DNA from: a virus
Length of the DNA stretch: 13,868 nucleotides
Reading direction: 5' to 3' (one strand)
UHGV virus genome: UHGV-0175553
A program made the translations under genes and the position numbers. Below the pieces are notes generated by a model, which saw only the letters and a list, made by a program, of their open reading frames with translations, was not told the origin of the DNA and did not search any database. Positions 671-13,868 of the stretch are shown in pieces (within the stretch, counting starts at the first letter, position 1; every line of letters starts with the position of its first letter).

Positions 671-1816
671 TTAAAGTGGACGTGCGCCAGTCGGCATCGT
701 CACGGGTTTATTAAAAACAGATTCTGCCAGTGTGCTATGACCTTTACGCGGGTCACTGTCAGGTACTAAAACTGGCTGACCTTCTGGTTTTGTCGTACAC
801 ATGTCAACAAGTGCCGGAGGCAGTGATTTTTCCAGTGTTGACAACGGTTTTAATTTACGTTCGTACAATGTTTCAGGGTTTACACCAAACATAGGTGCAG
901 CACCGATCAGTTTACCTTCGTCCGTAAGCTGACGTCGGGTTTGCTTTGTTGCAAGTTTAAAACCCGGTAAAGCCTTACCCATACGTACAAAATGTAACCC
1001 CTGAGTATGTAACGCTGTTTTTGCTTCAGAAGAACGCGTATACAATTCTTCAAGAAGTGCCAGACGACGCGCTACTTCTTCTGGCGTAAGTGATGGTGGT
1101 GCATCAAGAACAGTAGCCAATTCTAAAACCCTCTCATACATCGCCGGACACATACCACGCGCCGGACAGTAATGACAATGACTACCAACATTTAACGGTG
1201 CGTCTGGTTTATGTGCTTCGTTAAACCCGTGTTTAAATCGTTCAGCCCATTCCATCAATGTTGCCCGGTTAAACTCCCATCGTCTTACAGGTCCGAGTGG
1301 GTGATAAGCCCGTGGCTGAACAATTGTGAACACAACGCGCTTAACAGTATCAATACAACGTTGGTCCAGTGCGTAATAGACCCCCTGTGAATTATCAACT
1401 GCTTCAACTGCAACATGACCGTATTTATAATCCCATACGTAAAGCGTATCAGTATTAAAGTCATACCAGCGATAATCACAGGTTCCGTACTGACCGGGTA
1501 ACAACCAGTCAATGTGAATGCGAACTTCTGAAAACAGCGGATCAAGTTTCGCACCAACTGAAAGAACATCTGCTATAAAGTCATCCGCATAAATATGCAT
1601 GTCTTCAGTAACCTGAACACCGTTAGGAGCAAGACACGGCATTAATGGCGGTTTACCTTTAATCTTCTGTTCTAACACCCAGTGCCCGGCTGTACCTTCT
1701 TCAGCACTGGGTGATGATGGTTCTACATAGTCAATCCGCTGTGACAGTTGAACGCTACCCGGACAAGCTAACCAACGTTTTGATCCACTGGCACTAAAGG
1801 TAGCGTGACTGCTCAT
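671..1816 (-). CDS. Cas4-like PD-(D/E)XK nuclease with Fe-S cysteine cluster (DUF2800-like)
   Basis: 381-aa ORF. N-terminal RWLACPGS cysteine, VWDYKYG (D-x-K catalytic-type motif), C-terminal HCHYCPARGMCP (C-x2-C-x5-C) giving a 4-Cys Cas4/RecB-like arrangement. Start overlaps the stop of the upstream gene at 1816. Confidence 0.8.
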   Translation of the reverse strand: MSSHATFSASGSKRWLACPGSVQLSQRIDYVEPSSPSAEEGTAGHWVLEQKIKGKPPLMPCLAPNGVQVTEDMHIYADDFIADVLSVGAKLDPLFSEVRIHIDWLLPGQYGTCDYRWYDFNTDTLYVWDYKYGHVAVEAVDNSQGVYYALDQRCIDTVKRVVFTIVQPRAYHPLGPVRRWEFNRATLMEWAERFKHGFNEAHKPDAPLNVGSHCHYCPARGMCPAMYERVLELATVLDAPPSLTPEEVARRLALLEELYTRSSEAKTALHTQGLHFVRMGKALPGFKLATKQTRRQLTDEGKLIGAAPMFGVNPETLYERKLKPLSTLEKSLPPALVDMCTTKPEGQPVLVPDSDPRKGHSTLAESVFNKPVTMPTGARPL

Positions 1817-2568
1817 CAGAATGCTCCACCCATTTGTTTAACAGATTCAGCCTGACCAACAATGTTTTCAGCATCAGCCGGGGCCGCGTTAATGCGTTCA
1901 ATCAGTTCGATGATAGATTTCAGTTTTACCGGGTCGTCAATCTGCATCACGTTCTGAGTTTCATACAGTCCCATGATTCGCTGACTTAATGGCGCAGCAC
2001 GGTCACCCGTAATTTGTCCAAACATCTGCATCAGTGCTGACTGAAGAACCTGTGTGTTATAAACTTTAGCCGGATCCGTGGTTACAGGTTGCTCGACAGG
2101 CGCGACTGGTGCAGCCGGTGCTGCTGGTACAACTGGAGCTACCGGAGCGGCAGGAACCGCTGGAGCAGGATCAACAGGTGCTACATAACCTGGTGCAAGT
2201 TCTGCAGGTCCGGTATAACGCCCTGCTTCAACTGCTTCAGCGATAAGTTCACGTTTAACACCGTCAACAAACGCTTCATCCAGTTTTTTCTTTTGACGCC
2301 ACAGACCATCACCTTTGTTCAGGGATTTACTGTCAGTGTGGATACGCGGATCATGACGCAAACCCCATTTGTCGAACTCTTCAGTGCTGGTTTCGTTATC
2401 GTCAACATCTTCAGTTGGTGTAGATACAACAGGCAGTGATTCAGCAACGACAGAAACGATTTCTTCTTTCGTAATCGGTGAGACACTTTTACCAGCAATC
2501 GCTGCTGCCAGATTGTTGATCGCAGTTTCCAGACCCGGAGCAGTTACAAGTAATTTAACTTCGAACAT
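1816..2568 (-). CDS. Hypothetical protein, two segments joined by an Ala/Pro/Val-rich linker
   Basis: 250-aa ORF, first gene of the minus-strand operon; RBS GAGGAAAACG upstream of ATG at 2568. Contains PAPAVPAAPVAPVVPAAPAAPVAPV linker. No recognisable catalytic motif. Confidence 0.65.
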   Translation of the reverse strand: MFEVKLLVTAPGLETAINNLAAAIAGKSVSPITKEEIVSVVAESLPVVSTPTEDVDDNETSTEEFDKWGLRHDPRIHTDSKSLNKGDGLWRQKKKLDEAFVDGVKRELIAEAVEAGRYTGPAELAPGYVAPVDPAPAVPAAPVAPVVPAAPAAPVAPVEQPVTTDPAKVYNTQVLQSALMQMFGQITGDRAAPLSQRIMGLYETQNVMQIDDPVKLKSIIELIERINAAPADAENIVGQAESVKQMGGAF

Positions 2569-2738: not shown

Positions 2739-4400
2739 ATGAAAGCTCGTTATTATCAGACTGAAGCTATCAATAACGTATGTCAGGCATGGTCAAGCGG
2801 TGCTGACGACGTGATTCTTGTGCTTCCCACGGGGGCAGGAAAAACGTTCTGTATGTCTGAACTGGTAAAAACAAGAGACGGTGTAAAAGTCATCCAGGCA
2901 CACCGTAAGGAACTGGTTAGCCAAATCGCAATGGCTGTTGCTCGTCAAGGGTTAGCACACAGATTTATAGCGCAAAAAGATACTGTTAAGTTTGCAACTA
3001 ATCAGCAGATGAAAACGCTTGGTTACAGTACCTATTCCCCCGGCGCTGACATCGTTATTACCAGTTCACAAACGTTAAGAACAAAACAGTACGAACGATG
3101 GTACAACGACGTGTCTCTTGTGTTCAGCGACGAAGCGCATCACCTGGTACGTGGCACACAGTGGGGAGACTGCCGGGAAAAATTCCCTAACGCTAAAGGT
3201 CTGGGTGTTACAGCTACACCGATCCGTGCTGACGGTAAAGGCCTGGGTCGTCATGCGTCAGGTTACGCAGATCAAATGATCATTGGTCCGTCAATGCGTG
3301 AGTTAATCAGTCAACAACATCTGGCTGATTATCGTCTGATTATGGCTGAAACAGACCTGGAATTAACTGCAGAAATGATTTCTCACACGACGGGTGATTA
3401 CAAACCATCTGCATTAAAAAAAGCGATGGAAGATTCAAACATTGTTGGTGATACCGTCAGTACGTGGAAAACATATGCAGATGGCTTACTCACTGTTGTT
3501 TTTACGTGTGACGTAGATTCTGCTGAAGCACTGGCAAAAGAATTTCGCGATGCTGGTATTCCTGCAGAGGCGATCAGCTCACGAAACAGCAATCAGGAAC
3601 GAGCGGATATCCTGGAACGTTTTGAACGACGTAAGACGCTTGTACTGTGTAACAACGATTTATTCGGTGAAGGATACGACTGTCCGGCAATGGAATGTGC
3701 AGTAATGGACCGTCCCACAGAATCTTACTCTTTGTTTGTACAACAAATGGGTCGACCATTGCGTTTCAAACCGGGTAAAAAAGCACTGATTATTGATAAA
3801 GTCGGTAATGTTCGTCGATTTCTGGCCCGTGGTTTTCCACTTCCCGATCAGCACTACAACTGGTCTTTAGATGACCGTGACCGTCGTTCATCAAACAGCA
3901 GTGGGAACAGTAACACAACGTGTACAAACAAGGGTGATCCTGATAACGGTATTCCACCGTGTCTGAAGCCTTATCCGTCTGGTCTGCCGTGCTGCCCATA
4001 TTGTGGTCATATTCCTGAAAAAGCCGAACGCTCAGGCCCGGATCGTGTAGAAGGTAATTTACGTGAACTGACACCTGAAGAACTGGAAGAATTACGCCGG
4101 GCAGTTGTGATAATCGACCGTGACCCTGTTGCAGTAAAAGAACAAATGTTAAACGCTGGTGCACCCCCTGTTGCAGCTTACAGTGCAATGAAAAACATTC
4201 AGGCAATGAACGATGCACAGCGTAAGTTACGCGGCATGATTACCACATGGGCGGGTATTCAACGTGATAAAGGTATACCCGTTGATGACGCTTACAAGAT
4301 GTTTTACAGGGTGTTTGGTGTTGATGTACTTAGCGCTCAGGGGTTACGTACTCGTGAAGCTAATGAACTCGCTGCAAGGGTTGCAAGTTCATTAATCTGA
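2739..4400 (+). CDS. SF2 DEAD/DEAH-box helicase (ResIII-like ATPase core) with C-terminal Cys-rich extension
   Basis: 553 aa. Q-motif YYQTEAI, Walker A LPTGAGKT, DEAH box FSDEAHH, motif III TATP, motif VI QQMGRPLR. C-terminal extension has a Cys cluster CLKPYPSGLPCCPYCGH. Confidence 0.9.
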   Translation: MKARYYQTEAINNVCQAWSSGADDVILVLPTGAGKTFCMSELVKTRDGVKVIQAHRKELVSQIAMAVARQGLAHRFIAQKDTVKFATNQQMKTLGYSTYSPGADIVITSSQTLRTKQYERWYNDVSLVFSDEAHHLVRGTQWGDCREKFPNAKGLGVTATPIRADGKGLGRHASGYADQMIIGPSMRELISQQHLADYRLIMAETDLELTAEMISHTTGDYKPSALKKAMEDSNIVGDTVSTWKTYADGLLTVVFTCDVDSAEALAKEFRDAGIPAEAISSRNSNQERADILERFERRKTLVLCNNDLFGEGYDCPAMECAVMDRPTESYSLFVQQMGRPLRFKPGKKALIIDKVGNVRRFLARGFPLPDQHYNWSLDDRDRRSSNSSGNSNTTCTNKGDPDNGIPPCLKPYPSGLPCCPYCGHIPEKAERSGPDRVEGNLRELTPEELEELRRAVVIIDRDPVAVKEQMLNAGAPPVAAYSAMKNIQAMNDAQRKLRGMITTWAGIQRDKGIPVDDAYKMFYRVFGVDVLSAQGLRTREANELAARVASSLI

Positions 4401-7964: not shown

Positions 7965-7982
7965 TCATTGCACAAGGATGTG

Positions 7983-8023
7983 TAAAATAATTCTTGACGA
8001 ATTACAGATGTGTACGCTATAGT
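7983..8023 (+). promoter_or_regulatory. Sigma70-like promoter with the conserved upstream element
   Basis: taaaataattcTTGACGaattacagatgtgtacgcTATAGT: -35 TTGACG (7994-7999), 18 bp spacer, -10 TATAGT (8018-8023). A short inverted repeat TGTAC...GTACA overlaps the -10. Confidence 0.6.
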
Positions 8024-9137: not shown

Positions 9138-9529
9138 TAATTGTCGTCACAGGTGGTCGTGACTTTAACGACAGAACAGCAGTGTTTTCCGCGTTAGGAC
9201 TACTTCACAAACAATTTCCGGTTACCGAACTAATTGAAGGAGGTGCGTCAGGTGTTGATAACCTGTGTAAGCAATGGGCGCAATTACACGGTATTCCTGT
9301 GCGTAGTTGCCCGGCAGCGTGGGACGATCTGACTGTACCTGGTGCGGTTGTAAAACAGGGTAAGCACGGGGCTTATAACGCTGTTGCAGGTCATCAACGT
9401 AATCAGGCGATGTTAGAGGGTGAACCACGCCCTATATACGGTGTTATGTTCCCCGGTGGTCGTGGTACTGCTGATATGCACCGTCGCATGTTGAAAGCTG
9501 GTTTAACTGTGTGGGTTCCGTATCCTTAA
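9134..9529 (+). CDS. SLOG-superfamily protein (DprA/LOG-like Rossmannoid, DUF2493-like)
   Basis: 131 aa. IVVTGGRDF, EGGASGVD (DprA-like GGxxGxD) and FPGGRGTADM (LOG-like PGGxGT) motifs. ATGA overlap with the MTase-like gene. Confidence 0.5.
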   Translation: MIIVVTGGRDFNDRTAVFSALGLLHKQFPVTELIEGGASGVDNLCKQWAQLHGIPVRSCPAAWDDLTVPGAVVKQGKHGAYNAVAGHQRNQAMLEGEPRPIYGVMFPGGRGTADMHRRMLKAGLTVWVPYP

Positions 9530-9566
9530 AATAATTCTTGACAGATTACCAACCCTCCCCGATAAT
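9527..9566 (+). promoter_or_regulatory. Strong sigma70-like promoter with the conserved upstream element
   Basis: taaaataattcTTGACAgattaccaaccctccccGATAAT: consensus -35 TTGACA (9538-9543), exactly 17 bp spacer, -10 GATAAT (9561-9566). GAGG RBS precedes ATG 9601. Confidence 0.7.
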
Positions 9567-13596: not shown

Positions 13597-13625
13597 AAAA
13601 AGCGGGGCTAACTACCCCGCTATCT
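13597..13625 (-). terminator. Putative rho-independent terminator for the minus-strand gene (possibly bidirectional)
   Basis: Stem GCGGGG (13602-13607) / CCCCGC (13615-13620), 7-nt loop. On the minus strand the hairpin is followed by TTTT (plus-strand AAAA at 13597-13600); on the plus strand it is followed by TATCTTTATT. Lies directly after the minus-strand stop at 13626-13628. Confidence 0.5.
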
Positions 13626-13868
13626 TTATTGACCCATCATATCTTTATACATCATCAAAACAACATCATCCGGCATATTATCTACATCGCAATGCGGGTT
13701 GTGTGATAACGCATACAGCCTGATTTTCTCCTTCAAATCGCTGACATCGACTACAGGTGCTTCCACTCGTGCTACAGGTGCTTCCACTCGTGCTACAGGT
13801 GCTTCCACTCGTGCTACAGGTGCTTCCACTCGTGCTACAGGTGCTTCCACTCGTGCTACAGGTGCTTC
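13626..13868 (-). CDS. 3' end of a minus-strand gene encoding a heptad-repeat (APVARVE)n protein; N-terminus beyond window end
   Basis: Open frame continues to the last base of the window. The track's M at 13850 is an internal GTG (Val) inside the repeat, so the true start is outside the window. C-terminal sequence: ...(APVARVE)x5 APVVDVSDLKEKIRLYALSHNPHCDVDNMPDDVVLMMYKDMMGQ. Confidence 0.6.
   Translation of the reverse strand, partial: EAPVARVEAPVARVEAPVARVEAPVARVEAPVARVEAPVVDVSDLKEKIRLYALSHNPHCDVDNMPDDVVLMMYKDMMGQ
13751..13868. repeat. Perfect 21-bp direct tandem repeat (ctacaggtgcttccactcgtg), 5 full copies plus 13 nt, truncated by window end
   Basis: Read directly: identical units start at 13751, 13772, 13793, 13814, 13835 and 13856. 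In frame with the minus-strand CDS, encoding APVARVE heptads. Confidence 0.95.

Follow-up and report, generated by a model that had tools for sequence, protein, structure and literature searches.

Phages Sasha, Sergei and Solent were reportedly described by Zeng et al. (2019, J Virol 93:e00848-19), and two of them carry an annotated counterpart of the repeat array analysed here. The GenBank records label the array a 'direct tandem repeat region' in gp81 of Sasha (KX987158, 52088-52369) and in gp91 of Sergei (KY002061), and give neither a function nor a comparison for it. Arrays of this kind have been studied in Borg extrachromosomal elements, where perfect in-frame tandem repeats (aaTRs) create intrinsically disordered regions (Schoelmerich et al. 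2023, PMC9879509). The Borg units are joined perfectly head to tail, their length is divisible by three and includes 18 and 21 nt, close relatives differ in how many copies they carry, most of the encoded repeats are disordered, and assemblies are interrupted by them (PMC9879509). In all of these respects they are like the array described below. Borgs differ in being archaeal elements with hundreds of arrays, which are enriched in extracellular and membrane proteins (PMC9879509), whereas here we deal with two arrays in a 57-kb phage, both in proteins predicted to be cytoplasmic and DNA-binding.

Three other known systems invite comparison. Ala/Pro-rich interdomain linkers occur in the E2 chains of 2-oxo acid dehydrogenases, and TonB has a Pro-rich spacer. 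Like the repeats studied here, these linkers are A/P/V-rich with interspersed charges, and they form an extended spacer between folded modules, as the phage heptads probably do. However, they have no homology to the heptads, and they are not known to be encoded by perfect DNA repeats or to vary in copy number at such a rate. In phage lambda, the oriLambda iterons lie inside the linker-coding region of gene O. The likeness is that the repeats sit in DNA encoding the place where a DNA-binding N-terminal part meets a C-terminal interaction domain. The repeat-gene protein, in contrast, has no Pfam match to O and belongs to a family found only in 9NA-like phages, its array is missing in many family members and has no adjacent AT-rich region, and its perfect units are hypervariable in number. 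Finally, the XRE/Cro-CI phage regulators (P22 C2, TP901-1 CI, Aca proteins and C-proteins) differ from the repeat-gene protein, which has no sequence-level family match and possesses, in addition, a conserved helical domain in its centre and a C-terminal module of 40 aa. Phages carrying the repeat gene have been reported to be without lysogeny genes (PMC10612097).

The DNA analysed here, referred to as the window, is the whole stretch of 13,868 nucleotides of virus genome UHGV-0175553. An exact-protein look-up showed that it is an entire short-read SPAdes metagenome contig (ena:ERZ1035001:NODE_837_length_13868_cov_40.35). It was 96-97% identical over 84-90% of its length to Sashavirus/Nonanavirus (9NA-like) siphophages of Escherichia and Salmonella, including PDP46, Bas82, PJ16, AVIO78A, Sasha, Sergei and Solent.

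Tandem Repeats Finder (TRF) located 5.6 copies of the 21-bp unit CTACAGGTGCTTCCACTCGTG, with 100% matches and no indels, at positions 13751-13868. No stop interrupted the minus-strand frame between the window edge and the TAA at 13626-13628, and its translation gave (EAPVARV)5-EAPVVDV followed by a non-repetitive 40-aa tail. These results bear out the proposal of the initial annotation, made from the letters alone, that at least 5.6 identical copies lie in frame in the minus-strand gene at the window end. Of the coordinates that it gave, 13626-13868, only 13751-13868 are repetitive. Positions 13626-13750 are the non-repetitive 3' end of the gene, identified by translation and homolog alignment, and encode a conserved C-terminal module of about 40 aa (DVSDLKEKIRLYALSHNPHCDVDNMPDDVVLMMYKDMMGQ) and the stop codon. 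Its 125 nt of C-terminal coding sequence were 100% identical to PDP46, and the motif N-P-x-C-D...P-D-D-V within the module was kept in the 9NA and Klebsiella homologs. A bidirectional rho-independent terminator, a G+C-rich hairpin with T-runs on both strands, lies at 13601-13621. It separates the repeat gene from the convergent plus-strand genes, and a terminator is annotated at the matching place in the Sasha, Sergei and AVIO78A records.

Because the unit equals seven codons, the gain or loss of copies never breaks the frame, and we rejected frameshift-type phase variation by the array. The array belongs to the class of in-frame VNTRs, or amino-acid tandem repeats, that encode disordered interdomain linkers. 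It shares with the Sasha and Sergei arrays the orthologous gene, the insertion point, the 21-bp period and the E-x-P-V-x-R-x heptad, and the C-terminal coding sequence is nearly identical. The unit in those phages differs at 2 of 21 nt, encoding EPPVARA there and EAPVARV in the window, where at least five copies are present. The window array is an allele of the tandem-repeat locus that the GenBank records of these two phages point out, and it belongs to the well-known minisatellite class.

The initial annotation had also recognised that the window edge cuts the array, and this edge proved to be the end of the contig. In fact, both contig ends lie inside tandem arrays, the right end in the 21-bp array and the left end in a 30-bp array, and an independent Logan contig (L022) ends in the repeat gene too. 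We infer that the assembler broke the contig at the two arrays, which account for the breaks in short-read assemblies of these phages at these places. Since the contig edge cuts the array, 5.6 copies is only a lower bound. Short-read assemblies may collapse arrays, and long arrays break contigs (the window, L022, P0029 and P0012), so that the copy-number distribution in the databases is biased to low counts, and copy numbers from such contigs are untrustworthy. That the assembler itself created or expanded the array has next to no probability. The array does stand at the very end of a short-read SPAdes contig, and its copy number here is unreliable. However, it was present in the matching frame and place within the gene in nine complete genomes from independent laboratories and in dozens of contigs. 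The array itself is hence no assembly artefact, but its length here may be.

In the complete genomes, the repeat gene is the last gene at the right end (PDP46_0097, Sasha gp81, Sergei gp91, Solent_091, Bas82_0094, AVIO78A_105, PJ16_098 and 9NA gp84). It adjoins the replication module and shares a divergent intergenic region with terS, away from which it is transcribed. The genes at the start and the end of the window, whose identity as one or two genes had been raised as a point to check, were distinct, lying about 13.9 kb apart in the complete genomes. A single gene joined across the two window ends on a circle was rejected by this synteny.

The length of the array varied widely among relatives. 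In about 40 genomes and contigs, the heptads of the orthologous last-gene protein numbered from 0 to 13. The gene was 726, 735, 756, 756, 777, 798, 798, 882 and 966 bp long in the nine complete phage genomes, and in eight of them the lengths differed by exact multiples of 21 bp. The exception was the 726-bp gene of BDX09P1, which also has a shorter, divergent N-terminal cassette. Heptads numbered 2 in Solent and BDX09P1, 3 in 536P12 and Bas82, 4 in AVIO78A, 5 in PDP46 and PJ16, and, as in the deposited genomes, 9 in Sergei and 13 in Sasha. Thirty further proteins from two 90%-identity clusters had 0, 1, 2, 3, 4, 5 or 7 heptads. Sasha, Sergei and Solent differed by no more than 3 substitutions in the approximately 3.9 kb around the gene, with 0-1 inside it, and yet had 13, 9 and 2 units in the deposited sequences. 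Therefore, copy number changes far faster than point substitution. Variation of copy number, and hence of linker length, between isolates had been anticipated in the initial annotation, with an invariant count among relatives as the opposite outcome. The counts ranged from 0 to 13.

Units were alike within a genome but different between genomes, reading EAPVARV, EPPVARA, EPPVSRV or EPPVTRV. The differences between genomes were mostly non-synonymous, at first or second codon positions, and among A, P, S, T and V. The skeleton E-x-P-V-x-R-x was constant, and third codon positions were nearly invariant between the units of different phages, which may leave some room for constraint at the DNA level.

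Homologs without the array were found in 9NA, FSL SP-062, four Klebsiella phages and a Salmonella contig (P0006). They were 40-53% identical and aligned on both flanks of the array, with the junction at ...GTGTPF-x-x-M / S-x-x-I-R-E.... The more distant members P0010 and P0011 had a non-repetitive linker with EPQPVVD, and the Sasha-type protein P0031 had zero full units and only a single EPPVVDV. The array-less homologs, the EPQPVVD linkers and P0031 indicate that the array arose when a short motif already present at the domain boundary was amplified. As judged from these alignments, the array is an insertion of the Sashavirus branch that separates the conserved N-terminal part of the protein from its C-terminal module, which has two helices and is likewise conserved. 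In the Klebsiella phages Carvaje and KP13-27, a central helical module of about 85 aa (DVW-RF-CG...W...N) is duplicated internally, with no linker array (L011 328-1263, L013 1498-2424).

We then asked what kind of protein contains the array. A full-length ortholog gave no Pfam or NCBIfam family at E <= 1, and no HTH family profile in these collections (HTH_3, HTH_31 and similar) matched. Searches of the PDB with the ortholog, as a single sequence and as a profile, gave no sequence match, and a deep homolog search of two very large libraries gave no distant annotated relatives. In a PHROG scan, for which the full-length PDP46 and BDX09P1 orthologs rather than the window fragment served as queries, both matched PHROG 25538, a family of function unknown (E = 3.6e-173 and 5.3e-132). 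The family was confined to 9NA-like phages, with 7 clusters in a library of 5.8 billion proteins, 7 representatives in one of 1.84 billion, and 23 phage records.

Structures were predicted with AF2. The first model, which included the repeats, had an overall pLDDT of 59, and Foldseek gave no significant match to it in the PDB. In this model, of the repeat-bearing ortholog P0002, an N-terminal helical domain (residues 1-57, pLDDT 77-91) was followed by a helical central domain, then by the heptads (residues 185-217), which had pLDDT below 50 and no helix or strand, and then by two C-terminal helices. The model of an array-less homolog, with a mean pLDDT of 77.9, also had two C-terminal helices. 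The structure of the C-terminal domain, which the initial annotation had suggested predicting, is thus modelled as two helices in orthologs, and the heptads are predicted to encode a disordered spacer. The N-terminal part of the predicted structures, which were built on shallow alignments of 7-9 sequences, showed similarity to the XRE/Cro-like (lambda-repressor-like) HTH fold. The protein is probably an XRE-type DNA-binding protein with exchangeable specificity cassettes that acts next to terS.

The divergent region of about 500 bp between the repeat gene and terS contains eight same-strand TAGTGCAC-GTT-GTGCA-like palindromes, against 0.77 expected, which resemble TAGTGCACGTTGTG (TGCAC-GTT-GTGCA type). 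Inside the window, this type of palindrome occurred at chance level only. A stretch of 17% G+C adjoins the palindrome cluster. The divergent region (L001 17464-17640 and 17689-17750; L009 3716-4180) has an operator-array or iteron-plus-AT-rich architecture, and could, for example, control promoters or be an origin or a pac site.

In BDX09P1 and cluster P0003, about 70 aa at the N-terminus are different, and so are about 200 bp of upstream DNA contiguous with them. The upstream segment carries other palindromes (TAATCCTGTCATAGT / ACTATGATAGT), and the sequence is conserved on both sides. In 9NA, a third N-terminal HTH type is accompanied by TAACAC-GTT-GTGTTA repeats. There are thus three specificity types, each with its own palindromes (L004 3657-3850 vs L009 3675-3900; L010 1-249; L012 281-490). 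In SP-062, the full-length gene is preceded by an additional, separate ORF of 69 aa that is of the 9NA HTH type. The HTH and the nearby repeats are exchanged together like a cassette, as in repressor/operator or initiator/iteron pairs; with so few independent events, the pattern suggests such a pair and does not prove it.

The same comparison bears on the idea that the 21-bp units, which span two helical turns, are themselves a cis element, that is, iterons or protein-binding sites like oriLambda in gene O, with the peptide as a by-product. The period of 21 bp, the near-invariant third codon positions, the place of the array between a DNA-binding N-terminal part and a C-terminal module, and the adjoining replication module are all consistent with it. 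However, the unit did not resemble the upstream palindromes, so that a relation between the two was rejected. The unit also remained unchanged when the HTH cassette was swapped, which argues against its being the protein's own binding site. Furthermore, the array is absent from the 9NA, SP-062 and Klebsiella homologs, and P0031, from contigs of about 57 kb, has zero full units. An origin would be expected to vary far less than 0-13 copies, and no AT-rich segment lies next to the array, the flanks having 39-44% GC against a locus mean of 44%. Single-strand folding of the array was weaker than that of shuffled sequences (z = +3.25 for DNA). On this evidence, a cis element is very unlikely. The folding result also led us to reject structured RNA or hairpin-prone DNA at the array, and Rfam and tRNA scans of the window gave no matches.

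The array at the left end of the window lies in the gene for a putative single-stranded DNA-binding protein (SSB), as the initial annotation had suggested. The minus-strand gene occupies positions 1-655, where its 5' two-thirds, cut by the contig end, were identified by translation, by the PDP46 ortholog and by PF10991. The match to PF10991 (E = 1.7e-5, 25 bits) was below the gathering score of 26; the orthologs are annotated as Gp2.5-like in PDP46 and Bas82, and we regard the protein as Gp2.5/Enc34-like. Its C-terminal region contains two in-frame copies of a 30-bp repeat, (AAPTPAAAPV)n, at positions 1-60 of the same strand, between the OB-fold core and the C-terminal tail. This array differed in copy number in all relatives, with about 2-3 copies in Solent, 3-4 in Sergei, 4 in PJ16, 6 in Sasha, 8.7 in PDP46 and about 10 in Bas82 and AVIO78A. 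The GenBank records of Sasha and Sergei mark it as a repeat region.

A third linker is found in the 250-aa protein. It lies on the minus strand at 2083-2193, is A/P/V-rich and is an imperfect repeat with a 27-bp period in 1.9 copies (TRF). In relatives it varied by one APV (9 bp). The protein had no Pfam family. An InterPro 'TonB box' label is attached to it in Solent, where it (window positions 1816-2568) is named 'putative TonB receptor protein', and in PDP46, PJ16 and AVIO78A it is named 'helicase'. The ortholog of the 553-aa helicase (2739-4400) is, in turn, named 'exonuclease' in PDP46 and AVIO78A. The relatives' product names for the 250-aa and 553-aa proteins look unreliable. Elsewhere in the window, a 24-nt motif with a TTGACA box, GTAAAATAATTCTTGACAGATTAC, occurs in three copies, on the minus strand at 2618-2641 and on the plus strand at 7980-8003 and 9527-9548. 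Each copy heads a gene block in the direction of transcription, and the motif is probably a shared early or middle promoter.

Three window proteins, namely the SSB, the 250-aa protein and the repeat-gene protein, therefore carry A/P/V-rich linkers, as had been observed at the outset. The initial annotation went further and proposed that their DNA is near-identical and could serve as a substrate for recombination between the genes. Part of the underlying observation was accurate. The 13-mer TGCTACAGGTGCT and its APVA peptide are common to the two arrays, the word occurring exactly at positions 2 and 32 and five times in the 21-bp array, where 0.01 was expected for that word. It covers GCA CCT GTA GCA plus 1 nt and encodes APVA in frame in both places, and, given the codon usage of the window, APVA would be written in precisely these codons with a chance of about 0.9%. 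A related sequence, CAGGTGCTACAT, is present once in the linker of the 250-aa protein, at 2175. However, a stretch of 13 nt is short. Some 15 further independent pairs of places far apart in the window have at least 13 nt in common, so that a 13-mer shared by one pair of places is not exceptional. Near-identity across the three genes did not hold up, because the third linker uses other codons. APVA in the 250-aa gene is encoded by GCTCCGGTAGCT and GCACCAGTCGCG, and all that the gene shares is the 10-mer GTAGCACCTG, in another register. In Sasha-type units, the stretch in common with the SSB array is only 11 nt. No rearrangement was found in the complete relatives, 9 of 9 of which keep both genes intact and syntenic, and a crossover between the direct arrays would delete about 13.7 kb of replication genes. 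Recombination between the linkers is hence highly improbable.

The behaviour of the two arrays raises the question of whether their length is under selection. The spacer could be an adaptive tuning knob or contingency locus, in which its length determines how far the C-terminal module can reach from the DNA-bound part, and changes in copy number are selected for host adaptation or for escape from a defence that senses the protein. The A-to-P change, which makes Pro-Pro motifs, may also alter translation speed. The very fast turnover relative to substitutions, the perfect homogenisation within genomes and the mostly non-synonymous differences between unit variants would fit such a role, as would the second array in the SSB of these phages, which varies too, from about 2-3 to 10 copies, and the predicted action of both array-bearing window proteins on DNA. 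However, all lengths from 0 to 13 heptads occur with no preferred count and no link to host genus (E. coli phages 2-5, Salmonella phages 2-13), and relatives without any array exist. We consider selected tuning of this kind unlikely. A broader version would make both arrays (13751-13868 and 1-60) selected tuning knobs, with heptad turnover and the A/P switching of Pro-Pro stalling motifs altering the reach or dosage of a regulator at the terS-proximal region, as a contingency mechanism by which virulent 9NA-like phages would adjust to new hosts or escape a defence that senses these proteins. This seems more doubtful still.

The explanation that we prefer, and hold to be quite probable as a whole, is that of a hypervariable minisatellite spacer in a DNA-binding protein. 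The array would be an in-frame minisatellite of the Sashavirus branch of 9NA-like phages, amplified from a pre-existing E-P-P-V motif at the junction of two conserved parts of the last gene (Sasha gp81, 9NA gp84, PHROG 25538). Replication slippage or unequal recombination would add and remove copies, 21 bp at a time, and the same processes would keep the units identical within a genome. The Pro/Val/Ala-rich heptads, each with one Glu and one Arg, would form a disordered and probably extended spacer. Its length appears to be weakly constrained, since 0 to 13 units all occur in genomes that are intact in other respects. Most likely, the protein binds DNA in a sequence-specific manner and either regulates transcription or binds an origin. 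The palindromes in the divergent region toward terS would be the target of its N-terminal XRE/Cro-like HTH, and the two-helix C-terminal module, tethered by the spacer, may function in oligomerisation or partner binding.

Compared with what the GenBank records already contain, the new elements are the breadth (0-13 copies) of the polymorphism and its speed when set against point substitution, the finding that the array originated at a domain junction in one lineage, the recognition of both contig ends as repeat-induced breaks, and the recognition of the host protein as a probable XRE-type DNA-binding protein with exchangeable cassettes. The practical value of the array itself is modest. It provides a ready VNTR marker to separate near-identical Sashavirus isolates in biocontrol or therapy work, and it marks a domain boundary in an ORFan protein. 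The assignment as an XRE-type protein is directly testable in Bas82, which can infect a derivative of E. coli K-12 whose O16 O-antigen has been restored. If the length of the linker is functional, the array would represent a rare contingency-type repeat in a phage regulatory protein.
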